The notes: generated from the letters alone by a model not told the origin. A stretch of DNA of 64,000 bases from Flavobacteriales bacterium (GCA_044224725.1 JBGAJW010000008.1:26136-90135), one strand, 5' to 3'. Counted from the first letter of the stretch, positions 4,262 through 45,339 are shown. Made by a program: numbers and translations.

Positions 4262-5256
4262 TGCGCGCACGCTTCCTGCTCCTGGTCCTCCGCCGAAGCC
4301 TTGGCATAGGCGGACCCCCGCGCCTGCCCCTGGCCCTACTCCTGCTCCTGCCCCTGGCCCCCGCGCGCGCCCAGCAGATCGCCCAATACACCCAGTACGT
4401 CTTCAACCAGTTCAGCGTGAACCCGGCGGTGGCGGGCAGCAAGGATTGTTTGGACGTACGCCTCGGCTTCCGCAAGCAATGGGTGGGTTTCCCCGGTGCG
4501 CCCACCACGGGCTGGGCCAGCTTGCACGGCGCCATCCGTGCCAAGGGAAAGCCCTTCGTGAAGAGCCGCCACGGCATAGGTGCGTTCATCGAAAGCGATG
4601 ATGCCGGGGTGATCGGCTACACGCACTTCTACCTGGCCTACGCCTACCACGTGGAAATGGCGAAGGACTATTACATGAGCATGGGCCTCTTCGCGGGCGT
4701 GAAGCAACAGAAGCTCGACCTGGGCGAGGTGAACGCGGTGAACCCGAACGATCCCCTGCTCGCCAGCGACGGCAGCGTGATCGTGTACCCCATGGTCTGG
4801 CCGGGCATCTGGTTGTACAGCAAGAACGGCTGGGCCGGCCTTTCCATGAACCAGGTGCTGGGCAACAAGGTGAAGGACATGGGCGAGAACACGCGCCTCA
4901 CCCGCCACTTCCTCGCCAGTGCCGGTCGGCGCTTCCGCCTCAACCGCACGCTGGCCGTGGTGCCCAGCACCATGTTGAAGCTCTCCCCGAAGTCGCCCCT
5001 CGCCATGGACCTCAACGTGTCCATCGAATACCGTCGCAAGCTCGGCCTCGGTATCTCCTACCGCAACCAGGACGCCGTCGCCTTCATGGTGAAGATCCCC
5101 TTCCTGAAGTACTTCACCCTCGGCTACAGCTATGACGTCACCACCAGCCGGCTCCGGAAGGCCAGCAGCAACACGCACGAAGTGATCCTCGCGATCTACC
5201 CGTGCGGCAACAACGACCCGGCCAAGAACATCGTGCGATGCCCCGTTTTCGAATGA
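4261..5256 (+). CDS. PorP/SprF family T9SS outer-membrane protein
   Basis: QQIAQYTQY...NPAVAG...RKQWVGFPGAPTT...GYSYD...THEV; ATG overlaps the upstream TGA. Confidence 0.92.
   Translation: MRARFLLLVLRRSLGIGGPPRLPLALLLLLPLAPARAQQIAQYTQYVFNQFSVNPAVAGSKDCLDVRLGFRKQWVGFPGAPTTGWASLHGAIRAKGKPFVKSRHGIGAFIESDDAGVIGYTHFYLAYAYHVEMAKDYYMSMGLFAGVKQQKLDLGEVNAVNPNDPLLASDGSVIVYPMVWPGIWLYSKNGWAGLSMNQVLGNKVKDMGENTRLTRHFLASAGRRFRLNRTLAVVPSTMLKLSPKSPLAMDLNVSIEYRRKLGLGISYRNQDAVAFMVKIPFLKYFTLGYSYDVTTSRLRKASSNTHEVILAIYPCGNNDPAKNIVRCPVFE
4285..4315 (+). repeat. 31-bp palindromic element in coding sequence, copy 2
   Basis: Identical to 3266-3296. Confidence 0.92.
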
Positions 5257-8200
5257 AGAAACAACGACCCCTCCACACCGCGGCGCTCCTCCTCCTGGTC
5301 CTCCGCCGCAGCCTCGGCATAGGCGGACTCCTGCTCTTCACGATGGCCGCCACCGCGCAAGACACCAAGTACTGGGTGGGCGGCAGCGGGGACTGGAGCG
5401 ATGCCGCGCACTGGGCGCTCAGTTCCCACGGTGCCGGTGGTGCCGGGGCACCGCGCGCGTCGGAGAGCGCTTGGATCATCGGCCAGGGCGACCGTACCGT
5501 ACATATCGACGGGAACGTCCGCTGCATGGACCTGGTCATCGATGCCACGCACGGCGCATTGGTCATCGATGGCCCCGCTTCGGCGAAACTGGAACTGGGC
5601 GGTGGTTTGCGTGCGGACGGCAACGTGGATTGGACCTTCCCCGGCGACATCGAATTCACCAACGACCACGGCGGAACGATCCAACTTTCCCCGCATGGCA
5701 TCGGTATCGCGAGCAACATCATCCTGAACGGCTCGGCGATCTGGGAGATGAGCAGTGCGCTCGTGCTCCGCGACAATGCCTCGCTCACGCTGAAGAAAGG
5801 AACGCTCCGGCTCTTCGATGGTGTGCTGCAGGCCGGTTCACTCCGCACCGAGGGCCGCGCACGCAAGCGCATCGAGGCGGGCAGCGCGTACGTGATCCTG
5901 GGCGCGTTGGACATCGATACGGAACGCACCGCGGTGGATGGGGGCAGTACCCTGCTCCTCGTGAACGGGCAGATCTCCGCGTGGGACGGTTCCATCCGTG
6001 ACGCCGAAGAATTCCGCGGCATCACCAATTGCGCTACGGGCGCGGGCCAAACGCCCTTCCAGGTGAACGCCTTCGTGACCACCAACTACAACGGCTTCGG
6101 TGTCACCTGCAACGGTGCCTGCAACGGTGCGGTGAACGTGACCGTCACCGGCGGCACGGGCAACTTCTCCATCCAATGGCAAGGCGGGCCCGGCGGTTCC
6201 GGTACTTCCCTGCCCTGGACGAACCTGTGCGCGGGGAACAAGCTGGTGATCGTGACCGATCTCGGCCAGAACGTCGGCTGCTTCGCCAACGCGCTGATCA
6301 CCCCGCCACCACCGCTGGGCGTGCTCTTCTTCGGCCTGAACCCGCCTACCTGCGCGGATGTATGCAACGGAACGGCCGTGACCTTCCCCGGTGGTGGCGC
6401 GGGCAGCGGCTACACCTACAACTGGAACAACAACACCGAGAACACCTCCAACCCCTCGCAGCTCTGCGCCGGCGTGAACACCTTGCAATTGCGGGATGCC
6501 AACAACTGCGTTTTCGATACCTCCTTCACCATCGACCTCCTGCCGGTGGCCGCCGTGCTCACCTTCACCGATGCCACCTGCTCGGGCGATTGTGACGGTA
6601 CGGCACATGTGGATGTGAGCGGGGGCACACCGAACTACACCTTCAACTGGGAACCGGGCTCACCCACCGGGGACGGCACGGCTGATGTCACCGGTCTCTG
6701 CCCCGGCGCTTACACGGTGCTCGTGGCCGATGCGAACAACTGTGATACCACGATCGCCTTCACCATCATCGCGCCGCCACCGATCGTGCCGAACCTCGTG
6801 TTCACCGATGCTACCTGCTTCACCAGTTGCGATGGCACCGCGAACGTGAACCCCACCGGAGCGGCCGGTCCGTTCTCCTTTGATTGGGCCCCGAACCCCG
6901 TGACCGGGGATGGCACCAACAGCGTGACCGGTCTGTGCTCCGGTGATTACACCGTGCTCATCACCGACCTGGCCACGGGATGCGATACGCTCGTTCCCTT
7001 CACCATCGGCTCCGCTCCGGCCATTGATGTGCAACTCACGGTAACGGACGCTACCTGCTCCGGGAATTGCGATGGTACGGCGGACATCGTCGTCAGCGGG
7101 GGAACACCCGGCTACACCATCCTCTGGGCTCCCGGCATCATCACGGGCCAAGGCACCCCCAACGCCACGCAACTCTGCCCCGGCGATTACACCGTGACCG
7201 TTACCGATGCCGCGGGCTGCGACACGACGTTGCAGTTCACCATCGCGCAGCCTCCGCCCATCCTGCCCAACGAGACCTTCACCGATGTGCGCTGCTTCGG
7301 CCAGTGCAACGGCACCATCGATCTGGCACCTACCGGCGGAACGGGAACCTACACCTATGTGTGGGCGCCGCCCCCGCCCGTGGGTGATGGCACCGCTTCC
7401 GCTTCCGCGCTCTGCGCGCAGGACTGGAGCATCACCGTAAGCGACGCGCTCGGTTGCGATACCACCGTCACCATCACCATCAGTGAACCACCCCAGTTGG
7501 CGGTAACGCCTTCGCAAACGAACATCAGTTGCGGCAGCAATTGCGACGGCACGGCCAGCGTGAACGTTTCCGGAGGTACGCCGGGCTACACCTATGACTG
7601 GTCCGGTTCCCCCGTGGGAGACGGCACGAACGCCGTGACGGACCTCTGTGCGGGCGTGTACACGGTACAGGTGCTGGACAGCGCTTTGTGCGAGGTGATC
7701 CAGACCTTCATCATCCAGGAGCCTTTGCCTATCGTGGTGGACGTGGCCACGGTGAACGCGACCTGCCCGAACTTCTGCAATGGAACGGCGGACGCGACGG
7801 TGACGGGCGGCAACGATCCGTACACCTATGTATGGTCGCCTGCTCCGGGCAGCGGCCAGAACACCCCGAACGTGACGGGTCTCTGCGCGCAGGATTATTC
7901 CCTCACGGTCACCGACTCGGTGAGCTGTGATACCACGATCACCTTCACCATCAGCGCCCCACTGCCGATCGATCCGCAGGATTCGGTAACGAACGTGACC
8001 TGCTTCGGCGCGTGCGATGGCAGCATCATCCTGGACCCGATCGGCGGCTTCGGCAACTTCACCTACACCTGGACGCCCCAGCCGCCCAACGGCCAAGGCA
8101 CGAACCAGGCGTTGAACCTCTGCGCGGGAACCTGGTCGGTCCTCATCGCCGACGGCGTCTGCGACACCACACTCGTTTTCGACATCACGGAGCCGGCACC

Positions 8201-11200: not shown

Positions 11201-14200
11201 GTGCGCGGGTATCTACACGGTGAACGTGCAGGACGCGAACGGGTGCTCCGCGCAGACCGTGGTGGTGATCAGTGATGCTACGGGTGAAACGCTGACCGTT
11301 GCGGATGGGCAGACCACCTGTTCGAACAATTGCGACGGCTCCGTCTCCGTGACCTTCACCTGCACGGATGGCCCATGCACGATCACCTGGTTCGACCAGA
11401 CCGGCCAGCAACTCGCGCAGAACTTTTTCGCGTTGGACAGCCTGTGCGTCGGTGACTACTATGTGCAGGTGGTGAACAACGCCGGTTGCACCGTGATCGA
11501 TACCGCCACCGTATCACCCTCGCAGCTATTGATCCCGAACCTCAGCACCACGCCGGTCACCTGTAACGGTGACTGCAATGGCACTGCGACCGTTGGCCCG
11601 ACGGGCGGCGTCGGACCATACACCTATGACTGGGCGCCCGATCCGGTCACCGGGGATGGAACACCGTCCGTGAGCGGCCTTTGTCCCGGCGTCTACACCC
11701 TGTTATTGGGCGATGCCAGCGGGTGCGATACCACGATCAACGTACTCATCACGGAGCCTTCACCGATCTCGGTCAATGGCCAGGTATCGGGTGTTTCCTG
11801 CAACGCGGCCTGCGATGGCGCTATCTCGCTCTCCGCGGTCGGCGGGTCCGGCGGCTTGTCGTTCACGTGGGATCCCACACCGCCGGTCGGGCAGGGCACC
11901 AGCGACGTGTCCGTTCTCTGCGCAGGGGATTGGACGGTGACGATCAGCGACAGCCTTGGTTGCGATACGGCCGTCACGTTCACCATCACGGAACCGCAAC
12001 CATTGACGGTCGCAACGACCAGCACCCTCAGCACCTGCGGCATATGCTCCGGCACCATGAGCGCGACGCCTTCTGGCGGAACGGCAGGATACTTCTACAG
12101 TTGGACGCAGAACGGTTCCATCTTCGGAACGGACAGCGCGTTGACCGATGTATGCGCCGGTCTCTATGAAGTGACCGTGACGGACGCGAACGGTTGCCAG
12201 GCGCAACAGACAGTGCCCGTGAGCGACAGCGACGGCGAAGTGCTCAACGCGACGAGCGATATCGTCACGTGCCCGGGTATCTGTGATGGTTCTGTCTCTG
12301 TCGCTTTCAATTGCTCTGCGCCCGGCTGCTCGATCACTTGGCTCGATGCCTTGGGGAACGACCTGGGGGAGACGGGCAACACGCTGGACACCCTCTGCCC
12401 CGGTACCTACTTCGTGCAGGTGATCAATGGGAACGGATGTCTCACCATCGATACCGCACTGGTCACGGAGCCGCAACCCATCCTGCCGAACCTCGGCACC
12501 ACGCAGCCCACCTGCGCGGGCGAATGCGACGGCACGGCGACGGTGGGCCCGACGGGCGGTGTAGGTCCGTACTCCTATGATTGGTCGCCTGACACGATCG
12601 CGGGGGACAGTACGAGCAGTGTGACCGGGCTGTGCGCGGGCAACTACGCGCTGCTCATCACGGACTCGGTCGGCTGCACGGCGAACGTCGATGTGCTCAT
12701 CATCTCGCCACTGCCCATTACGGCCAACGCGGCGATCACGGGGATCACCTGCAACGGCGCATGCGACGCGAGCATCAGTTTGGACGCTGCCGGTGGCACA
12801 GGACAATTGGCTTTCCTCTGGGCGCCCGATCCAGGCCCTGGTCAAGGCACGGACAGCGTCTTCGCGCTTTGTGCGGGCGACTGGAGCGTGACCATCTCGG
12901 ATGCCAACGGCTGCGACACGACCTATACGTTCAGCATCACCGATCCGCCGGTGCTGGTCGTCGATGTGAGCACGACGGACAACGTGTGCTTCGGCGATTG
13001 TGCCGGTGTTGCCACGGCGACCATATCCGGGGGTACCGCACCCTATGCGCTGTCTTGGACGACCTCGGATGGTACACCCATCGCCCAAGGGGATACGGCC
13101 ATCAGCGGCCTCTGCGCGGGTGACTATATCCTGCAGGTCGCCGATACGAACGGTTGCGTGTTGCCCACACCGTTCACCATCGGCGAGGGCGTGGCATTGC
13201 AAGCCGCACTGGCGTTCACCGGCGAAACGTGCAACGGACCCTGCGATGGCATCGCTTCCGTGGTGCCGGGCGGTGGTGCAGGAGGATATTCCATCACATG
13301 GACCGGTCCCGACGGTAGTGTTTTCGCTACGGACACCACGGATATCAGCGGCCTCTGCGCAGGCAACTGGAGCGTGACCATCATGGACTCCCTTGGATGT
13401 GACAGCGTATTCAACTTCACATTGCTGCCTTACACACCGATCGCGCCGAACGAGCAGGTATCGCAGGTCACCTGCAATGCCGCATGCGATGGGTCCGTGA
13501 CACTCGCGGCCACCGGCGGCATCGGTACGCTCTCGTTCACATGGACCCCGACGCCTCCGAACGTGGACACCAACGGTTCCGCGACGGGACTTTGCCCGGG
13601 TGATTGGAGCGTTACCATCACCGACGGTGTGGATTGCGACACAACGCTCAGCTTCACCATCACCGAGCCTCCGGCCATCACCATCGCGGTGGATACACTG
13701 GTGAACGCGAGCTGCAATACCGCATCTGACGGAGCGATCAGCACCACCATCGGGGGAGGCACACCCGGTCTGGACATTTCTTGGAGCGGACCGAACGGTT
13801 TCTCCGCGAACACCGACGACATCAGCGGGCTCGTTCCAGGGGACTATGCGGTGAACGTGCAGGACGCCAATGGTTGCAGCCTGCAGCAGACAGTGACCGT
13901 CGGTGCGCTCAGCACGGTGCTCGCGGAGGCGGGAAGCGATGTGACACAGTGCTTCGGCGCGTCGCTCATCCTGAACGGGGCTTCCAGCCAAGGTGCCGTG
14001 GACTATCTCTGGACGGATCCCCAAGGCACCACATTGGGCACGCAGCCCTTGCTGGACCTCGGCGTGCTGCAACCTGGAGCTTACACGTACATCCTCACGG
14101 TCACCGACACTCCATGCTCCGATGATGACACGGTCTTCGTGAACGTCCTGGCGCTGCCTTTCGCGGATGCGGGACCGGACCGTGACATCTTCGTGGATGG

Positions 14201-37003: not shown

Positions 37004-39202
37004 TCAGAATCCGAGTTTCAGGGAAAGACTGACGTTCCTTCCGATGTCGTAGAGCCCGAACGCCTTGAAGCGGGAGAGGTGGTCCACGTACTTCTCATCG
37101 GTGACGTTGTTGCAGACCACGACCATCTCCAAGGGGTCCTTGTTCCATTTGACACTTGTCCCGATCGACGCGTTCACCAGGGTGTAGGCCGGTGTCCGCG
37201 TTTCGAATTGCGCCGGGCTGTCCTGTGCGAACACGTTGCTCACACCGAGCTTCAGCCATGCGTGCGTCTTGGGGGTGAACTTCAGATCGGCCCGCAGCCG
37301 ATCGGCCGGGATGAAGGGCAGTGGTGTCCCGTCGCCCTTGTCGGCCTTGAGGTGGCTGTACGCGATCGTCGCATCCAACCACTTGATCACCTTGGGGTGG
37401 AAGTCGATCGTGGCCTCGCCGCCTTGGAGGGTCGCGTCCGTTTGCACGAAGCGGTAAATGTGCAGGCCCAGCGTGTCCGTTCCGGTCGGTGTCAGGTAGA
37501 TGTAGTCCGCGAACGCGTTGCGATAGACCGACATACCGAGTTCGATCTGCTCCGCCCATTCGTAGGTGAAGCCGAGTTCAGCATTCAGGTTGCGCTCCAC
37601 ACCGAGGTCCGGATCACCGAGCTCCCAGCGCCGTGTGCCTTCGTGCAGGCCGCTGCTGCCGAGTTCCGCCAGGTTGCCGCTGCGGTATCCACTGCTCACG
37701 TTGGCCTTGATGTTGAGTTCCTCGATGGGGTCCCACGCGAGGCCCAGGCTTCCGTTGAGCGCCGACCATCTCTTGTTGAAGGGCAGGTTCAGGTCCAGCG
37801 TGCGGATGGCGTCGATGCTCCGCAGATCGAAGCGCACACCGCCTTCGAACGTGATGTTCCCGGTACGTTGCTTCGTGTAGCTGAACACCGATCCTTCGAG
37901 CGTCGTCGCATCGGGTACGATGATGCGCGCGCCCACGTTCGTGTTGGTCTGGTAGAGGAAGGACGCGCCGTTGGTCCATGATCCGTTCTGGCCCATGCGC
38001 GCTGTAGCCTGCGCGACTAGCGATGCGCTGTTGAGCAGCATGTCCAAACTGATCTTGTTGCCGCCTTCCTGCTCCTGCCGCTTGTTGCTGGTCCAGCCCG
38101 CGTTCAGTTTCCATTTCAGCTTATTGCCATAGAAGGTGTTCTCACTGGTGAACACGCCGAGCAGGACGGTGTGGTGCGGTCCGCCGAACGCACGGCTGGG
38201 GCGCTCGTCTTGCACATCGCTCGCAAGGGAATCGAACACGAAACCGAATTGGCTCATGGACGCCATGAGGCTGTTGGCGCTTACCCACCGTTTGTGCTGC
38301 CAGCCGACCGCGGCCTTCGCCGTGTAGCTCGCGAAGCGGGAGTTGATCACCCGCGCATCGCCCGCGCTGCTGAAGTCGCCGTGACTGTCCGCACCGGCAC
38401 GGATGCGCCACCACTTCTTCGCGTCGCTCTTGCGGATGCCGTATCCCGCCGAAAGTCCCCGCGTGTTGCTGAAGAGCTGGAGACGCAGGTCCTGTTGCAT
38501 CGAATCGATCGGTGCCGGTTTCTCATCGATCACGTTCACCACGCCGCCGATGGCATCGCTTCCATACTGCAATGCGGCCGCGCCTTTGATCACCTCCACG
38601 CGCTCCACGCCGTCCGTGCTGAGCCCAAGGCCATGCTCATCCTGCCACTGCTGGTTGTCGAAGCGCTGACCTTGCGTGATCACCTGCACCCGATTGCCGT
38701 AAAGCCCGCGGATCACCGGCTTGCTGATGCCCACGCCCGTGGTCAATTGCGTCACACCTGGTATCCGCGCTACCGCATCGCTCACGCTCAAGGCCCCGTT
38801 CTCGCGCATCTCCTTCGCGCTCATCACGTCCACTTTGCGGCTCGTCTCCCGCGGTGCGTTCATCTGCATGCCCACGATGTCCACTTCTTCCAGTTCCATC
38901 TGGCTGGGCCGCAACCTCACATCCACCGTGATCGCCTGATCGCTGACCGTGATATCGCGGAACTGGCTCTCGAAGCCGAGGCGCGTGAATTGGACAACGA
39001 AGGTCCCCCGGTGTGAAGAAGACAGATGGAAAGCTCCCGTACTGTCGGTAAGTGTGCCCGTACGCAGTTCTGGCACGTACACCGAAACGTGCGGCACGGC
39101 AAGGCCTGAAACGGCATCCGTGATGGACCCGCTGATGACGGCTTGTGAGTGGCACCACAGGGGCACCAGCCACAGCCCGATATGAACGGCTTTCCGCAGC
39201 AC
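37004..39202 (-). CDS. TonB-dependent receptor (probably metal uptake)
   Basis: CarboxypepD-like N-terminus; plug (PGV...ISKPVIRGL...QQWQDEHG...EVIKGAAALQYGSDAIGGV); C-terminal F. Confidence 0.92.
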   Translation of the reverse strand: MLRKAVHIGLWLVPLWCHSQAVISGSITDAVSGLAVPHVSVYVPELRTGTLTDSTGAFHLSSSHRGTFVVQFTRLGFESQFRDITVSDQAITVDVRLRPSQMELEEVDIVGMQMNAPRETSRKVDVMSAKEMRENGALSVSDAVARIPGVTQLTTGVGISKPVIRGLYGNRVQVITQGQRFDNQQWQDEHGLGLSTDGVERVEVIKGAAALQYGSDAIGGVVNVIDEKPAPIDSMQQDLRLQLFSNTRGLSAGYGIRKSDAKKWWRIRAGADSHGDFSSAGDARVINSRFASYTAKAAVGWQHKRWVSANSLMASMSQFGFVFDSLASDVQDERPSRAFGGPHHTVLLGVFTSENTFYGNKLKWKLNAGWTSNKRQEQEGGNKISLDMLLNSASLVAQATARMGQNGSWTNGASFLYQTNTNVGARIIVPDATTLEGSVFSYTKQRTGNITFEGGVRFDLRSIDAIRTLDLNLPFNKRWSALNGSLGLAWDPIEELNIKANVSSGYRSGNLAELGSSGLHEGTRRWELGDPDLGVERNLNAELGFTYEWAEQIELGMSVYRNAFADYIYLTPTGTDTLGLHIYRFVQTDATLQGGEATIDFHPKVIKWLDATIAYSHLKADKGDGTPLPFIPADRLRADLKFTPKTHAWLKLGVSNVFAQDSPAQFETRTPAYTLVNASIGTSVKWNKDPLEMVVVCNNVTDEKYVDHLSRFKAFGLYDIGRNVSLSLKLGF

Positions 39203-39276
39203 GTTCGAAGGGGTTGATATAAAAGGAGGGGGAACAGGGCACCGCAGAAGGCGATGCGATCGCGCCGGAGCGCGCG

Positions 39277-39813
39277 CTAGGCTGCGGGCGGCCTGAGCGG
39301 CACCCGGTCGAAACCGGCGAGCAGGTCGGCACGGTCCAGCGCGGCGAACACCTCCACATCCGATGCGTCCTGTTCAATGGGTGATACCCCGCACGGAACG
39401 AAGAGGCCAGTTATCAGTTTGAACAGCACTTGCGTGCCGCCGTTCGCCGAGCGATGCTTGTGCCGGAACGGATCGAGCATGTGTGCGCAGTGTACGAGCG
39501 TGTCCTCATCCCCGTCGGGCAGACATGAGAAGGTCACAATATTCCCGTCCGTCCGCGTGTCTACCACGTCATACAGATGATCGTTATAGGAGAATTCATC
39601 CTCTTCTTCCCACGCGAATCCGTGATCGGCTACTTCGCCCCCCACAAGGGTGAACGACAGATGGGCCAGTCGGTCCATATCGTAAGCGCCGGCCTGCACC
39701 ATGGCCTTCATCTCGCGGCGCTCCATCCACCGCAATGCCAGCTGGGCCGGGTATATCCCGACGATCGTGAAGGCGAAGAACAGGAAGAGCCCTACACCCG
39801 TCGCTTGCCGCAT
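39277..39813 (-). CDS. Hypothetical membrane-anchored protein upstream of the TonB receptor
   Basis: N-terminal TM; WEEEDEFSYNDHLYDVV...CLPDGDE; His cluster; ends LRPPAA. Confidence 0.75.
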   Translation of the reverse strand: MRQATGVGLFLFFAFTIVGIYPAQLALRWMERREMKAMVQAGAYDMDRLAHLSFTLVGGEVADHGFAWEEEDEFSYNDHLYDVVDTRTDGNIVTFSCLPDGDEDTLVHCAHMLDPFRHKHRSANGGTQVLFKLITGLFVPCGVSPIEQDASDVEVFAALDRADLLAGFDRVPLRPPAA

Positions 39814-39983
39814 CGGGGCGAAGGTAGCGGAGCCGTGGACAAGGCCCGTCATCCTGGGTTTGGATCGGATGCCCATCCAGCTATACCGCCGACCGTCGGT
39901 TCTCCTTTTACCCGCTTCGCAAGAAGACCTCCACCCGCGCCTGTCGACCGTTTCGGACAGTTCCTTGATGTCGTTGAAGCGCT

Positions 39984-41804
39984 CTATTTCGCCACGACCC
40001 CGTCCTTCTCCAACTCCAGGACGATACCTGCCGCATTCATGTTCTGCGGGTCCATTGCCGACGCTCTTTTGTAGTTGGCCAGCGCCTCCCGCTTATCGCC
40101 GAGCTTCAGGCAGGCTTCGGCGTAGCTGTCGTACACGTTCGCGCTTTGCGGATACAGCTTCATGTTCACATAGAGCAGGTCGCGCGCTTGTTGCAGTTCG
40201 CCAGAATTCAGCAGCTCGTATCCGGTGGTGTTCAAGACCTGCTCGTTCACGGCCATTTCATCGGGCTGGGCGGCGCGCAACTTCTCGTACGCCTTCAAAG
40301 CCGCTTCGCGATCACCGCTTTTGATGAACTCGAACGGAACGTGCTCATCGTCCTTCATACGCTCGAGCGTGAAGAACGGATCATCCTTCGAAGGGCCGGA
40401 CACGATCAGGCCCATGTTCCCGTCAGGTTGTTTTTCGAATTTCCGGGTACGGTCATCCGTGCGGCAAACGAACCTTCCGTCGCCGATGTGAACGAGTTCG
40501 GTGGGTGATTCGCGGAGCGGTTCGCGGTACAGCTTGCCGTTGCGGAGCGCGATGGTGACACTGTTGTCGGCGCCACCACGATAGCGACCCGTCAACTGCT
40601 TCATGGCTGCATCGTCCATGGGTACCGGCTTGTGCGGTGTGGACACACCCGGCCAGTCGTAGGCACGCATGACCGAGCGCACCACTTCACCCATGAAGTC
40701 CGGTTGGTTGGCGTTGATGAGGATCACCACGCCTTTGCCGCTCTCCACATGTCCGATGATCTCGCCGCAGAAGCCCTCGTTCCAGCCGCCGTGTTCGAAG
40801 TAGCGCGCACCGTGCAGATCGATAAGCGAGAAGCCCACGCCGCCGTGCGGGTCCACGAAAGGTTCCACCATCTGCTTGGCCGTGGAGCGCATGAGCACTT
40901 TGCCACTATCCGAGGCCATGGTCTTCTGCATGTCGATGACGAAGCGTGCAAGGTCGGTCGCGGTGGTCCAAAGCCCGTCGGGTGCGATCTCCGGATACAC
41001 GTGCCACTTGCCCTGGGTCATGGTGCCATCAGGCACGTAGCCTGTGGCGGCGTTGTTGGTCCAGGCCGCAGGAAGCGGCTGCTCGTACGTGCTGTGCGTC
41101 ATGCCCAGCGGCTTCAGCACGAGGTCGTGCATGTGTTGCGGTACCGTTCCACCTTTCGCATCGAGCATGAGCTGTGCGGCTATGCAGTAGCCTCCGCCGG
41201 AATAGCGCCACGCACTGCCGGGCACTTGGTCCACCTCCACGGGCGGAGAGTTCGCAGGCGCTTCACCGTTCAGTATCTGCACCAACGAAGGGAGCGGCGC
41301 GCCGGGCAAGTAGCCTTCGAAACCATGAACGGTGGTGCCGGCAACATGCCCGAGCAGGCGCTGGAGCGTCACTTTCTCCGTTGTCGTGAACTCGTTCTCC
41401 GGCACTTTCCAGCTCGTGAGGCGGTCGTTCACGTTCTCGTCCAACTTCAACGCACCTTCTTCTACCAGCTTCAGCATGGCCATGGTGAACACCGGTTTGC
41501 TGATCGATGCGGCCTGGAACAAGGTGCTGTCCGTAACAGGTTGTTGTGTCATGGTGTCCATCACGCCGTAGCTCTTCACCCAGGCGATCTTGAAACTGTC
41601 GATCACCGCGATGCTCACGCCATGAACGCCGTAGTGCTTCATCCGTTCTTCAATGGTCCACGCACTGTCGCCTGCTATGAACACCGGGTTGCAGAGGCCG
41701 GTCTCCACATGCCTTCGCATGAACGCGGTGGGATCATCGGTGCGCGTGGGGGTGTGGCAGGCGGCGATGAAAGCGAAGAGGGGAAGCAGGTGTTTTGCGC
41801 GCAT
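39984..41804 (-). CDS. Serine hydrolase (class C beta-lactamase-like) lipoprotein with C-terminal TPR
   Basis: FQAASISK (SxxK), YSGGGY and HGG motifs; TPR YPQSANVYDSYAEA. Confidence 0.9.
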   Translation of the reverse strand: MRAKHLLPLFAFIAACHTPTRTDDPTAFMRRHVETGLCNPVFIAGDSAWTIEERMKHYGVHGVSIAVIDSFKIAWVKSYGVMDTMTQQPVTDSTLFQAASISKPVFTMAMLKLVEEGALKLDENVNDRLTSWKVPENEFTTTEKVTLQRLLGHVAGTTVHGFEGYLPGAPLPSLVQILNGEAPANSPPVEVDQVPGSAWRYSGGGYCIAAQLMLDAKGGTVPQHMHDLVLKPLGMTHSTYEQPLPAAWTNNAATGYVPDGTMTQGKWHVYPEIAPDGLWTTATDLARFVIDMQKTMASDSGKVLMRSTAKQMVEPFVDPHGGVGFSLIDLHGARYFEHGGWNEGFCGEIIGHVESGKGVVILINANQPDFMGEVVRSVMRAYDWPGVSTPHKPVPMDDAAMKQLTGRYRGGADNSVTIALRNGKLYREPLRESPTELVHIGDGRFVCRTDDRTRKFEKQPDGNMGLIVSGPSKDDPFFTLERMKDDEHVPFEFIKSGDREAALKAYEKLRAAQPDEMAVNEQVLNTTGYELLNSGELQQARDLLYVNMKLYPQSANVYDSYAEACLKLGDKREALANYKRASAMDPQNMNAAGIVLELEKDGVVAK

Positions 41805-41904
41805 GTGTCCGGTGGGGTGGTTGCAAAGGTGGTCCGCAACGACCTATCTCCATTGTCAGTAAGTGATCTGGTCACACGCGTTCACCACGTGTGCACATTG
41901 AAAT

Positions 41905-42042
41905 GACGAAGGGCGCCCAGTGGACGCCCTTCGCATGTCGCGCAGATCCAGTCCTACAACGTCCCCCGGGTTCTTCTGCTCCTTCCCGCTGAGCAGCGGG
42001 ACGATCGCCGCAAAGAGCGACTTGCGGTTGCGCCTGCCGAAG
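41905..42042 (-). repeat. Degenerate hppD 3'-end copy A plus downstream hairpin
   Basis: Reads FGRRNRKSLFAAI-VPLLSGK-EQKN..GTL* (one frameshift), against HppD FGKGNFKALFEAIEREQENRGTL*. Confidence 0.85.
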
Positions 42043-42103
42043 AGATACTGCGGCCTATCATTATTGTATAGGATGCGCATCGGCACTGTTCGGCCTTTGG
42101 CGA

Positions 42104-42868
42104 TCACGGTGCATCCGGATGGGCCACGTTCCAATCGCGCACGGCTGCTGGATAGTTGGCCGAATACCCGTGATGGGCACTGAAGAGGTGCGGCACATGC
42201 GGCAGTTCGGTAACGCGCCGGATCGCTTCTGTGGCCTTGGCGTGGTCCATATCGAAGAACGCCACCGAAGGCCCGACCTTTCCCTCCTTCAGGCTCAGAA
42301 TGTCGCCCGTGAACAGGTACTTGTCGTTCACTTGGAAACACATGGAACCGCTCGTGTGCCCGGGCGTAAGGATGCAGGCCACCTTCAGCCCGCCGATCGT
42401 CAGGAGCTGTCCGTCGTTCAGCAGCGTGTAGTCGTTCCTGGGCACGCTGTTGCTGTAGAACGGAACTTTCTGCTGCTTGCCCGTCAACATGTCCTCTTCC
42501 TCCCTGGCGAGGTAGATGGTCGCACGTCGGAACAACGGCAACGCGGCCACGTGGTCCATGTCGGTATGGGTCAACAGCACCGCTTCCACCTGCTCGGGAT
42601 CCACACCGAGCTTGCTCAGTTCGTTCTGGACAACGGACAGGTCCTTGCCGGCATCGATGGCGATGTACCGATCGCTATCGCCGACGAGGTACATGTTCAC
42701 GAACTCGTCCTTGATGGCGTAGACCTGGTCCACAACGAGTCCCGTAGGAGCGGGCGTCATCACCGAGGTTTCAGCACTGAAGCGGTGCATGAACCACCAT
42801 ACCACAAAGGCTATCATCGCGAGCAGCGCGCCTGCGATCATGAGCGCGAGTTTCCAACGTTTTCCCAT
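42104..42868 (-). CDS. MBL-fold metallo-hydrolase
   Basis: THTDMDH, TPGHTSGS, LFTGD and SAHH motifs; N-terminal TM. Confidence 0.9.
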   Translation of the reverse strand: MGKRWKLALMIAGALLAMIAFVVWWFMHRFSAETSVMTPAPTGLVVDQVYAIKDEFVNMYLVGDSDRYIAIDAGKDLSVVQNELSKLGVDPEQVEAVLLTHTDMDHVAALPLFRRATIYLAREEEDMLTGKQQKVPFYSNSVPRNDYTLLNDGQLLTIGGLKVACILTPGHTSGSMCFQVNDKYLFTGDILSLKEGKVGPSVAFFDMDHAKATEAIRRVTELPHVPHLFSAHHGYSANYPAAVRDWNVAHPDAP

Positions 42869-42940
42869 GGCGTTTCGTCCTATTTCGGGGCGCAAAACTC
42901 CAGTTGCCTTTGCGGGACGACGATAACGATCGATAAGAAA

Positions 42941-43519
42941 TCAATGCGCAGCGATGCGCCTCCGTATCCGGCTCAACGACACTGGCGTTACGCCGATGAA
43001 TGAGGCGATATGGTGCTGGGGAACGCGTTGAATGAGGTCGGGACGCTCTTTGAGCAGGTCGCGATAGCGTTCTTCCGGGCTGTTCAACAGGTACGAGGTG
43101 AACAGGTCGTGCAGGACCACGAAGCGTTGCTCGATGGACTTGCGGACGAACTCGTTCATCTTCGGGAATACGTGGTACAGCTTCTCCAGCGCCGCGTAAG
43201 AAAGGGCGAGCACCTGAGTGTCCTCCAAGGCTTCCATGGCGATCAGGGAGGGCTTTCGCGAAATGAAGCTGTCATAGGTGCCCGCGAACATGTGCTCCGT
43301 GAAGAAGTAGGTCGTGCGCTCCACACCATCCTTCGTGTAGAACAGCCGCAGGCAACCACTCTCCACGAAATACACCGCGTTCGCCACTTTCCCTGCCGGG
43401 TGGACCAAGGACCGCTTCTTGAAGACCTTTTGCTCGAAGTAGCCCAATACCAGGTCCAGCTCCGCATCGCTGAAGCCGGTGATGTGCTTGAGCGTAGAGA
43501 ACGTTGGGTCGGCGCGCAT
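42941..43519 (-). CDS. Crp/Fnr family transcriptional regulator
   Basis: cNMP domain (YFVESGCLR) and SPEERY...HIASFIGVTPVSLSRIR HTH. Confidence 0.92.
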   Translation of the reverse strand: MRADPTFSTLKHITGFSDAELDLVLGYFEQKVFKKRSLVHPAGKVANAVYFVESGCLRLFYTKDGVERTTYFFTEHMFAGTYDSFISRKPSLIAMEALEDTQVLALSYAALEKLYHVFPKMNEFVRKSIEQRFVVLHDLFTSYLLNSPEERYRDLLKERPDLIQRVPQHHIASFIGVTPVSLSRIRRRIAAH

Positions 43520-43558
43520 GTTAATTGGGAACGGCTCGGCCAAGTTCGCATTCGGAAC

Positions 43559-43688
43559 GACGAAGGGCGCCCAATGGACGCCCTTCGCATGTCGCACAGA
43601 TCCAGTCCTACAACGTCCCCCGGTTCTTCTGCTCCTTCCCGCTGAGCAGCGGAACGATCGCCTCGAACAGCGACTTGAAGTTGCCTTG
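43559..43688 (-). repeat. Degenerate hppD 3'-end copy B plus downstream hairpin
   Basis: In frame QGNFKSLFEAI-VPLLSGK-EQKNRGTL*; the ~50 nt after the stop are nearly identical to copy A. Confidence 0.9.
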
Positions 43689-43691
43689 TGC

Positions 43692-43895
43692 CTAGAACAA
43701 AGCGACTTCGCCTGCTACGATGGCATCCCACGGTATTTGTTCGATCCCCGGCGAAAGCACACGCCGTTCCGCGGCCGTGTTCACGACCCACCCGCGCTCC
43801 AGCCCGAGATCGCTCATAGACTACCGCTGGAAGCGCTTTTCGGGCAGCCTTTGCAGGTGACGCACGCCTTGTAGATCTGAAGTTAGACTTCAAAT
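43692..43895 (-). pseudogene. Probable remnant of the C-terminus of an AAA+ ATPase/DUF4143 PD-(D/E)XK protein
   Basis: FEV* followed by frameshifted RFQR*SMSDLGLERGWVVNTAAERRVLSPGIEQIPW. This resembles DUF4143 tails from memory and is unverified. Confidence 0.45.
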
Positions 43896-43917
43896 ACACA
43901 AGGCTACCTAGAGCCCA

Positions 43918-44031
43918 TTACAGCGCCCCGCTGTTCTCCTGCTCCCTCCCGCTGAACAGCGGGACGATCGCCACGAACAGTGCCTTGAAGTTGACTCCCG
44001 ATGGATCCGCACGAAGTCGCTTGCCGAAGCT
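43918..44031 (-). repeat. Degenerate hppD 3'-end copy C
   Basis: SFGK + short insertion + NFKALFVAI-VPLFSGR-EQENSGAL*. Confidence 0.88.
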
Positions 44032-44186
44032 CACTTCTCCTTGCGCGCCTTCTTGACGGACTTCTTCAATTCGGACTTAAGACCCAATTGTCGAAGGTCT
44101 GAGATAGGGTCCGCCGCTTGTTCATCAAGCTCCTTCTTGGATAGGCCCTTGACGTTCTTGTACGTGACGTGAATACTCCGGGACAT
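44031..44186 (-). CDS. Small basic hypothetical protein (51 aa)
   Basis: ATG 7 nt after the hppD stop; the stop abuts copy C; MSRSIHVTYK...KKARKEK. Confidence 0.5.
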   Translation of the reverse strand: MSRSIHVTYKNVKGLSKKELDEQAADPISDLRQLGLKSELKKSVKKARKEK

Positions 44187-44193
44187 CGCTCGA

Positions 44194-45339
44194 TCACAGC
44201 GTCCCCCGGTTCTCCTGCTCCCGCTCGATCGCCTCGAACAGCGCCTTGAAGTTGCCCTTGCCGAAGCTCTTCGCGCCCTTGCGTTGGATGATCTCGAAGA
44301 ACATCGTGGGGCGGTCGAGCACGGGTTTGGTGAAGAGTTGCAGCAGGTAGCCCTCGTCATCGCGGTCCACCAGAACGCCGTGCTCTTTCAGCACCGCGAG
44401 ATCCTCGTCGATCTCGCCCACGCGTGACATCACATCATCGTAGTAGCTGGGTGGCACGTAGAGGAACTCTACGCCGCGGTCCTTCAACGCGCTCACCGTT
44501 TCGATGATGTTGTTGGTGGCCACCGCGATGTGCTGCACACCGGCGCCGTTGTAGAACTCGATGTACTCCTCGATCTGGCTCTTCTTCTTGCCCTCGGCCG
44601 GCTCGTTGATCGGGAACTTGATGCGGCCGTTGCCGTTGCTCATCACCTTGCTCATCAGCGCGGTGTACTCGGTACTGATGTCCTTGTCGTCGAAGCTCAC
44701 CAGCTGCGCGAAGCCCATCACGCGGGCGTAGAAATCCACCCACGTGTTCATCTCGCCCCAGCCCACGTTGCCCACCATGTGGTCGATGAACTTCAGGCCC
44801 GTGGGCGACGGGTTGTAGTGGCTCTTCCACGCCTTGTAGCCCGGCATGAAGGGACCCTTGTATTCGTTCCGCTCCACGAAGATGTGCACCGTCTCCCCGT
44901 AGGTGTGGATGCCGCTGCGCACCACGTAGCCGTGCTCATCCTCTTCGCGCACCGGCTCCATGAAGCTCTTCGCGCCACGCTTGGTCGTTTCCTCCCACGC
45001 TTTCTTGGCATCCGGCACCCACAGGGCGATCACCTTCACGCCATCACCGTGCTTGGCCAGATGCGCGTTGATCGGGCTGTCCGGCGTCATCGGCGTGGTG
45101 AGCACCAGGCGGATCTTGTCCTGCTGCAGCACGTAGCTGGTGCGGTCCTTCACGCCCGTCTCCAGGCCGGCGTATGCGACGCTCTGGAAGCCCCAGGCGG
45201 TCTTGTAGTAGTGCGCGCTCTGCTTGGCGTTGCCGACATATAGTTCAACGTAGTCGGTACCCCAAAGCGGCAGGAAATCCTGCGCATCAGCCATGATCTT
45301 CTCGAGGCTGTAGTCGACGTCTTTCAAACCAGTGGACAT
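44194..45339 (-). CDS. hppD: 4-hydroxyphenylpyruvate dioxygenase
   Basis: IDHMVGNV, FPINEP, GVQHIA, LLQLFT, FFEIIQR...FGKGNFKALFEAIE. Confidence 0.97.
   Translation of the reverse strand: MSTGLKDVDYSLEKIMADAQDFLPLWGTDYVELYVGNAKQSAHYYKTAWGFQSVAYAGLETGVKDRTSYVLQQDKIRLVLTTPMTPDSPINAHLAKHGDGVKVIALWVPDAKKAWEETTKRGAKSFMEPVREEDEHGYVVRSGIHTYGETVHIFVERNEYKGPFMPGYKAWKSHYNPSPTGLKFIDHMVGNVGWGEMNTWVDFYARVMGFAQLVSFDDKDISTEYTALMSKVMSNGNGRIKFPINEPAEGKKKSQIEEYIEFYNGAGVQHIAVATNNIIETVSALKDRGVEFLYVPPSYYDDVMSRVGEIDEDLAVLKEHGVLVDRDDEGYLLQLFTKPVLDRPTMFFEIIQRKGAKSFGKGNFKALFEAIEREQENRGTL

Follow-up and report, generated by a model that had tools for sequence, protein, structure and literature searches.

Direct, displaced 3' ends lying downstream of an intact gene are the textbook scar of integrative elements, which leave them at tRNA genes and at some protein genes. 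A gain of DNA that involves no mobile-element functions, with one homologous anchor and an illegitimate joint at a few shared bases, was reportedly described by de Vries and Wackernagel in 2002, Prudhomme in 2002 and Meier and Wackernagel in 2003; the laboratory products of this homology-facilitated illegitimate recombination are said to be mostly deletions of recipient DNA beside the anchor. The same mechanism, combined with a displacement logic, has been proposed for type VI secretion system (T6SS) effector-immunity arrays and Rhs loci, (PMC5361080), and many hotspots of horizontal gene transfer are described as free of mobile elements and subject to recombination at flanking core genes (PMC5635113). 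Here we describe a locus of an uncultured Flavobacteriales bacterium from sludge in which accessory genes are stacked behind hppD, the gene for 4-hydroxyphenylpyruvate dioxygenase, and are separated from one another by degenerate copies of the hppD 3' end. The window, i.e., the whole stretch of 64,000 nucleotides that was analysed (GCA_044224725.1 JBGAJW010000008.1:26136-90135), lies on contig C116 of a 4.96-Mb metagenome bin of 126 contigs (G000).

On balance, the array is probably a stack that arose by sequential displacement of the hppD 3' end at a recombination hotspot, via one-ended homologous recombination with DNA of congeners. Displaced pieces were found downstream of the intact gene and on the same strand (16 of 16 hppD copies, 9 of 9 loci in a genome scan, and sucD in five genomes), and in four of the five window units, as well as in three cases in relatives, they were joined to DNA that follows the gene in other genomes. 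The kind of process is already known from displacement in toxin loci; new here are the housekeeping anchors and the useless, decaying ends.

In Rhs, contact-dependent inhibition (CDI) and T6SS loci, as presented by Kirchberger 2017 (PMC5361080) and reportedly by Jackson 2009, new 3' parts and their linked genes are likewise anchored in a conserved upstream part, while the old 3' part is shifted downstream, giving rise to 'orphan' arrays. There, however, the anchor is a polymorphic toxin with a variable tip and an immunity gene, and is under selection, whereas here the anchors are the housekeeping genes hppD, groEL and sucD. HppD has a canonical end and is followed by regulators and hydrolases; moreover, the encoded sequence does not differ between its new and its old ends, those that were displaced serve no use and decay, and any accessory gene can be cargo. 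The locus differs from the laboratory products of homology-facilitated illegitimate recombination in that the joint falls inside the end of the anchor gene, so that a piece of it is duplicated. With the mobile-element-free hotspots of Oliveira, Touchon and Rocha 2017 (PMC5635113) it shares a fixed core interval (here hppD-aspS), fast turnover, the lack of an integrase and signs of recombination in a flanking gene. In the model of that paper, double homologous recombination in both flanks leaves no scar, whereas here displaced ends document the single events and their succession.

Integron arrays and integrase-less attC clusters resemble the window in their short, mostly single-gene units, in their single orientation and in having a repeat with hairpin potential after each unit. 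In contrast to integrons, the repeats here are the end of a neighbouring gene and vary in length, the unit is the repeat plus the gene downstream of it, many genes are affected, and there is no IntI: none of the five PF00589 matches in the genome (three of them full-length) is on C116, as the original prediction of an array with no integrase nearby had it. Nor were recombinase, transposase or reverse-transcriptase domains found in any of 40 cargo proteins, taken from the hppD arrays of 11 genomes and from eight other loci; these proteins comprise regulators, hydrolases, dehydrogenases, ATPases, a Fic protein, a DUF433/DUF5615 pair and secreted proteins. The single orientation holds in the window and is broken in G003, G013, G024 and on contig C18 of G000 itself. 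Tandem genomic islands bounded by partial 3' ends of tRNA or other genes are similar in that direct partial 3' copies lie downstream of the target, the older ones farther out; unlike them, the present arrays have no integrases, tiny cargo, many target genes and no fixed crossover point, the copies ranging from ~50 to 243 nt. As for diversity-generating retroelements, the cargo holds no reverse-transcriptase domain and the copies differ by indels too.

Copies of the hppD end divide the downstream region into five units

The anchor gene of the array is an intact hppD of 381 aa (44194-45339, minus strand), named from database matches and 95% identical to its orthologues in relatives; we refer to its final ~75 nt as the resident tail. 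Five units follow, all in the orientation of hppD, each parted from the next by a direct partial copy of the hppD 3' end. Unit 1 is orf51 (44031-44186; 51 aa, without Pfam family), which begins 8 nt past the hppD stop and whose terminal codons and stop fall within the start of copy C (43918-44033). Copy C is in frame, ends with a TAA stop and carries two insertions, one of 24 nt close to its 5' end and a palindromic one of 15 nt. Unit 2 (43655-43917) is the remnant of an AAA_14/DUF4143 ATPase gene, identified by homology to loci L051 and L055, and consists of a palindromic leader and the final ~40 codons; a 41-aa open reading frame (ORF) within it (43692-43817) stops 6 nt ahead of copy B (43559-43690), which comprises the 15-nt insertion, a TAG stop, a 22-nt spacer and a 13-bp hairpin (43561-43587). 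Unit 3 pairs the gene of a crp-like regulator with a cNMP_binding domain (42941-43519 from its likely ATG, or 43597 from the mechanical ORF start) with that of a metallo-beta-lactamase-fold (MBL) hydrolase with a Lactamase_B domain (42104-42868 from its likely ATG, or 42895), and is followed by copy A (41905-42050), which has the 15-nt insertion, one extra C that shifts the frame, the spacer and the hairpin (41907-41933).

Farther out, unit 4 is the gene of a 606-aa serine hydrolase (39984-41804; PF00144 Beta-lactamase family plus TPR). Next comes a probable copy D (39890-39972), a heavily decayed tail with an nhmmer E value of only 3.5, whose alignment was judged by eye and places ~27 extra nt at the site equivalent to the 15-nt insertion. 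In the relative G008, the place of copy D is taken by the resident hppD end, which adjoins a homologue of hyp199. Unit 5 (37004-39876), with no copy after it, would be the oldest and is made up of hyp199 (39277-39876, no family) and a putative TonB-dependent-receptor-like gene (37004-39202), a large outer-membrane receptor by a name read from the sequence. All of these features are on the minus strand.

We compared the copies by searching the whole genome with A, B, C and the resident tail in blastn. A and B were 92% identical over 130 nt (E 4e-48), B and C 85% over 78 nt (E 3e-18), and A and C 80% over 76 nt (E 9e-12); B matched the resident tail at 76% over 76 nt (E 3e-10) and C at 73% over 77 nt (E 5e-7). 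This similarity is far above chance for a genome of 4.96 Mb. No further copy of the tail was found on any of the 126 contigs, which rules out a dispersed repeat family, one of the outcomes that could have overturned the original prediction. That prediction was right about the gene order on the minus strand, about the cargo stops lying at or near copies C and B, and about B and C keeping frame and stop. Its claim that the copies re-encode the hppD end stands as far as homology to the tail is concerned, but they are not plain copies, given the 15-nt insertion in A, B and C and the frameshift in A. Likewise, A and B do share DNA past the stop (96% over 68 nt, including the G+C-rich 13-bp hairpin), but the hairpins, described as terminator-like, were not called by a simple terminator scan, their T run being weak. 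We therefore term them hairpins of the native hppD 3' region, unproven as terminators. The same hairpin directly follows the hppD stop in several relatives, and since A and B continue through this spacer and hairpin, they are whole former gene ends, more than coding tails.

The 15-nt insertion, absent from the resident tail, gives A, B and C an 8-2-8 palindrome (TCCCGYTG-NN-CAGCGGGA) that folds as a hairpin of 7-8 bp. Two of the 16 stem columns vary, as do both loop columns, against 35 of the 70 columns in the remaining tail. The insertion forms one family, present in A, B and C of G000, in G012, G069 and G114 and, degenerate, in G009; every carrier is a displaced copy at a cassette border, and the majority of displaced tails in relatives are without it. 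A pattern search of 131 genus genomes found no intact hppD with the insertion (3-mismatch matches stood in other contexts), and none of the best 120 of 8000 scored proteins was an HppD with five inserted residues, which is weak evidence. Within the genome the full palindrome is confined to the hppD copies, while its halves occur 184 and 210 times, against ~150 predicted by composition. A dispersed element or uptake signal was accordingly rejected, the halves being near the composition level; the commonest 10-mers reach at most ~117 copies and resemble coding bias.

A second, imperfect palindrome of 37 nt (CCTTGT..TTGAAGT..ACTTCA..ACAAGG) lies upstream of the ATPase cassette at 43870-43905. It is conserved in G069 (L170, ~1610-1650) and may be the operator of the ATPase gene.

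Four of the units match resident arrangements in other organisms

Four of the five units, taken as a tail plus the DNA downstream of it, match DNA lying directly behind an intact hppD elsewhere. The resident tail with orf51 is the resident arrangement in G003, G005, G020 and L052: the first three have copies of orf51, 76-80% identical, directly behind hppD, and L052 matches at the DNA level. Copy C with the ATPase remnant corresponds to L051 and L055; the remnant is homologous to the 3' end of an intact 389-aa AAA_14/DUF4143 gene that directly follows hppD in L051, and also to L055. In G069 the tail-plus-ATPase unit (leader and intact gene start) is kept behind a different, 311-aa cargo. The hairpin of copy B with crp and MBL lies directly behind the hppD hairpin of a related organism in public run X17, on a contig of 1666 nt that is 93% identical to the window and begins within the final 36 nt of hppD. 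Copy D with hyp199 and the receptor-like gene corresponds to G008, where homologues begin 77 nt past the hppD stop. For copy A with the serine hydrolase, no matching resident arrangement was found.

The three cases in relatives follow the same pattern. In G011a, the copy at 5806 continues for 2350 nt like the resident tail and sigma-factor genes of G009, and the copy at 5108 continues for 606 nt like the resident tail and downstream DNA of G011b; the copy in L053 continues like the resident arrangement of G013. The conserved unit is thus mostly a tail with its own downstream DNA, not a cargo with the site that follows it.

The region behind hppD is a hotspot of gene gain

Among 19 hppD loci of 18 genus genomes, 16 displaced tails (E<0.05) were found in 10 genomes, not counting two matches inside aspS (G006 and G017). 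All 16 were downstream of hppD on the same strand, and minus-strand matches appeared only at E>=1.9. Displaced tails were also present in five of six further genus-level loci (L051-L055), as well as in G069 and G114. In 72 hppD loci of other Bacteroidota (L057-L128), some of whose bins may belong to the same broad genus, we found no same-strand downstream copy, only chance matches of at most 33 nt and one inverted match of 146 nt.

The interval between hppD and aspS, the next conserved gene, ranges from 0.6 kb to ~10 kb among relatives, and most cargo clusters are singletons. Cargo on the strand opposite to hppD occurs in G003, G013 and G024. The copies begin ~50 to 243 nt before the stop: their length is ~50-60 nt in L051 and L053-L055, ~75-95 nt in most, 183 nt in G003 and 243 nt in G024. 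With this turnover between relatives, the original prediction of a gene-gain hotspot at this site is borne out, and the identical gene order in relatives that would have spoken against it was not seen.

Similar scars occur at other genes

The genome scan that the original prediction had called for covered G000 only and looked for local direct repeats that are 45-300 nt long, lie within 15 kb of each other and share at least 74% identity, of which there were 221 pairs. In 11 pairs, at nine loci, one copy lies across a gene stop and the other is non-genic, and the second copy is downstream in all of them; the labels 'genic' and 'non-genic' are approximate, as the ORF caller was crude, trained on long ORFs of G000, and missed a foreign-looking ATPase gene behind groEL. 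These loci include groEL and sucD-like, aldehyde-dehydrogenase-like, mutase-like and LOG-like genes. The scan gave a further eight pairs at gene 5' ends, one of which is the hppD A/B pair, mislabelled.

In 5 of the 39 genus genomes with a match, sucD has displaced ends, all of them downstream and on the same strand. A displaced groEL end was found in G000 only, 1 of 38 genomes with a match, and groEL was accordingly rejected as a genus-wide hotspot; the displaced copy keeps the stop codon, a short spacer and a downstream flank seen in several relatives. The corresponding search with the aldehyde dehydrogenase was swamped by paralogues. All-versus-all blastn of 14 cargo segments revealed no shared mobile-element end, the one weak match being within a single locus, and no Rfam family reached its gathering score in six of the other loci. 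No border motif common to the different genes was seen by eye.

The other displaced 3' ends (L129-L136) lie at C119 30997-34129, C96 53371-57109, C100 12452-14676, C82 13510-23329, C64 28662-32390, C18 9565-11283 and 24459-32381, and C106 63-1301. Between the intact gene and the copy there are mostly single genes of the same orientation, such as an AAA_16 ATPase gene behind groEL; a DUF433/DUF5615 pair separates the aldehyde-dehydrogenase-like gene from its displaced copy, and at the mutase-like gene on C82 the displaced fragment spans 262 aa. Copies of 5' ends, displaced upstream of the intact gene, are found at C82 5288-5488 / 13495-13691, C61 10435-11540, C81 2405-7886, C118 87678-92176 and C109 116553-117007. 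In the groEL 3' region (L129 3139-3230, compared with L139 and L162), some species have, and others lack, a hairpin-bearing insert of 35-60 nt between the stop and the hairpin; in G000 it is present in the resident copy and absent from the displaced one.

Proposed sequential displacement by one-ended recombination

In the process that we propose, DNA of a congener would enter the cell, bringing an hppD end together with the donor's downstream genes. On the left side it would be joined by homologous recombination inside hppD, and on the right side by illegitimate joining at a microhomology, ~50-250 nt before the recipient's own hppD stop. As a result, hppD would gain a new intact end and new downstream genes, while the recipient's former end, with its hairpin, and its old neighbours would be shifted outward and decay. 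Repeated events would build a stack with the newest unit beside hppD and the oldest farthest away, and ordinary recombination and gene conversion could then use the copies as stretches of homology, so that units would be reshuffled or deleted. Displacement of this kind, as proposed, would require neither a dedicated recombinase nor an hppD-specific site. The entry of the DNA, the one-ended mechanism with its illegitimate joint, and the order of events are what we infer from these arrangements.

Two observations bear on the crossovers themselves. The joint in G011a, the only one alignable to both parental forms, switches at a shared GAT. In a sliding-window comparison with G003, the identity of the G000 hppD rises from 78-80% at positions 841-1020 to 98% in the final 125 nt, a jump that is suggestive of a crossover inside hppD for the newest unit.

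Several points weigh against displacement by one-ended recombination. The microhomology was checked at one joint only, and 3 nt is weak. The left-crossover signal is noisy, because hppD is mosaic in all relatives, and is suggestive for G003 only. The cargo ORFs end 0-140 nt ahead of the next tail copy, with orf51 and the ATPase remnant ending inside the copy that follows, and no clearly truncated gene was seen at the joints, which is not expected from random illegitimate joints; selection for working cargo, together with a deletion bias, may explain it. Copies A, B and C have the same 15-nt insertion even though each was supposedly once resident and no intact hppD with it was found in the 131 genomes or among the best 120 of 8000 proteins, and the stems of the insertion are far better kept than the rest of the tail, a conserved palindrome that sequential displacement leaves unexplained. 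Both groEL copies have the same lineage-specific hairpin loop, so that the donor would have to be a very close strain, or the copy a local duplication. Although the MBL-to-tail joint and the 5' half of copy A are common to the window and the X17 contig, the two do not agree in the spacer and in the tail upstream of the hairpin; the conserved crp-MBL unit looks like a hairpin, the cargo and the 5' half of a tail, and would need extra recombination among copies or a circular intermediate. Finally, competence genes are uninformative: the genome has ComEC and DprA, but so do 10-11 of 14 control genomes, which gives no verdict on competence. Ku was not found in the genome.

If the proposed displacement holds, gene gain without a mobile element leaves an ordered, readable record in natural genomes, where the record of one-ended recombination has so far been known mainly from laboratory transformation and toxin loci. 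Each layer behind hppD would preserve a former gene end along with its downstream neighbours of that time, so that the order of acquisition and the kind of donor could be read and compared across species. Such scars are frequent in one uncultured wastewater genus of Flavobacteriales, at hppD, sucD, groEL and other genes, which raises the question of why illegitimate joints are frequent or well tolerated in this lineage. Hotspots free of mobile elements could also be located in metagenome bins by displaced gene ends, a simple marker.

Alternative explanations

The main rival is insertion-duplication via circles, in which a cassette loops out between two tail copies and the circle, carrying the cargo and one tail, re-enters any tail by a single crossover, in the same or another genome. 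Arrays would grow and reshuffle in this way, and illegitimate events would only found new cassettes. Every cargo does lie between direct repeats of the tail, or of tail and hairpin, and there are signs of exchange among the copies. Copy C is a mosaic: its 24-nt insertion is also present in the copies linked to orf51 in G003 and G005, where the 15-nt insertion is missing, whereas its 3' part is B-like and has the 15-nt insertion as in A and B. A relative present in runs X17 and X4 has crp-MBL immediately after hppD, whereas in the window it comes after orf51 and the ATPase remnant; the joint between MBL and tail is the same. Next in that relative come a tail copy that lacks the 15-nt insertion and at least 95 nt resembling the window's resident tail and orf51 start, so that the order of the cassettes differs. 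The mosaic and the changed order speak for circular intermediates, or for crossing over or conversion among the copies, and later recombination probably does use the tail copies as homology. To this extent the original idea of the hppD tail as a recombination site survives, but not in the sense of a site-specific system.

A 474-nt contig of run X15, in which the MBL end is joined without mismatch to the crp start via a hybrid A/B tail, is what a circle or a tandem copy would produce. However, the contigs of the four public runs compared were built from 31-letter words, and with a depth of 3.7 and a joint resting on 31 shared letters, the assembly may have taken a wrong path through the repeat, so that the contig allows no verdict. 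Joints of 41935/41938 to 44194/44196 had only 27-31 letters on one side, from relatives sharing the hairpin. Moreover, the copies are 73-92% alike with short runs of identity, which makes them poor RecA substrates; Campbell insertion would be expected to yield mainly long duplications, whereas most are below 130 nt; and the match of units to the resident arrangements of other genomes is left unexplained. We therefore hold circles to be an unlikely origin of the array.

It is quite unlikely that the array is integron-like, with a recombinase encoded elsewhere treating the palindrome-bearing tails as attC-like sites and moving single cassettes. What speaks for such sites is the small hairpin formed by the 15-nt insertion, its presence in at least four species, its conserved stems and variable loop in a tail that otherwise decays, and the window cargo, all of which is oriented like hppD and stops immediately at the next copy. 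Small hairpin-like insertions are also present in displaced copies at two other loci, but their sequences are unrelated, and the palindrome itself occurs nowhere else in the genome. Furthermore, no recombinase is encoded in or beside the arrays, the three full-length PF00589 genes being on other contigs; most displaced tails of relatives are without the palindrome and the limits of the copies vary; and three relatives have opposite-strand cargo. An integron-like system aimed at the hppD tail, as first suggested, is hard to reconcile with the scars at other genes and at 5' ends, the variable 5' limits and units that consist of a tail and its downstream DNA.

A related and equally doubtful reading is that the palindrome-bearing tails, with the 13-bp hairpin, are working sites of a new integrase-less cassette system, in which a host enzyme reads structure, not sequence, and moves single-gene cassettes; the hairpin insertions at other genes would then be footprints of that enzyme. 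The palindrome, these other insertions and the cargo ends at the copies keep a structure-recognising mechanism alive.

Very unlikely, in our view, is a descent of the array from several classical integrative elements that inserted in tandem and later lost their mobility genes, each having brought an integrase and an attP resembling the hppD end. The direct displaced 3' ends resemble the known scar of such elements, and the displaced groEL copy, with its stop, spacer and downstream flank of relatives, would fit. Yet neither an integrase nor a remnant of one was found among the 40 cargo proteins, cassettes are as small as 160 bp, the copy limits vary, the cargos share no sequence, and at least nine target genes in one genome would need equally many lost integrases.

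The suggestion that the copies are swappable C-terminal helices of HppD, i.e., silent versions recombined into the gene in a programmed manner, is close to refuted: B and C are in frame with a stop and 15 nt make five codons, but A is frameshifted, D is decayed, no intact HppD with the inserted residues was found, similar scars lie behind groEL and sucD, and a crossover between direct repeats would irreversibly delete the cargo.

An assembly artefact, finally, is refuted for practical purposes, even though the bin shows signs of two strains and has tandem repeats typical of an assembler: at least 0.9 of the sampled words of 41500-44700 are present in 14 public runs, which come from seven or more sludge and wastewater studies, contigs of run X4 cover the array with zero mismatches, displaced tails also occur in relatives assembled as 4-10 contigs or on contigs of more than 1 megabase (G012, G009, L053 and L054), and the copies differ by 8-27% and so are not collapsed or duplicated words. 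The tandem repeats are exact duplications of 140 nt (C14 6875-7154, C21 7510-7789, C58 1613-1892, C69 3260-3539 and C88 21809-22088) and look like artefacts of an assembler using 141-letter words. In addition, the bin has two equally good ComEC genes (C19:1107-1907 and C61:1636-2439) and a second, partial copy of the aldehyde dehydrogenase gene, 95% identical (C52:3-569), and at 4.96 Mb it is larger than the genomes of relatives (3-4.5 Mb); it may hold parts of two strains.

Further observations at hppD and elsewhere

In some relatives a hairpin of ~26 nt (TCCGCC...GGCGGA) is inserted just ahead of the end of the hppD tail: L040 (G011a 5806-5932), L045 (G018), L039 (G024 5676-5747), L034 (G020) and L170 (G069). 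A new stop accompanies it and the final ~25 nt of the tail are duplicated, the displacement pattern in miniature. The upstream side of hppD is variable too, as small toxin-antitoxin-like genes (PIN-like and HepT/MNT-like, judged from gene starts only) lie between hmgA and hppD in L032 (G007), L034 (G020), L038 (G003) and L039 (G024), though not in the window. Elsewhere in G000, non-genic direct repeats of 65-265 nt, spaced 0.6-8 kb apart, occur at C57 9996-26375, C121 3953-10042 and C30 33607-38990; these arrays may be further stacks.

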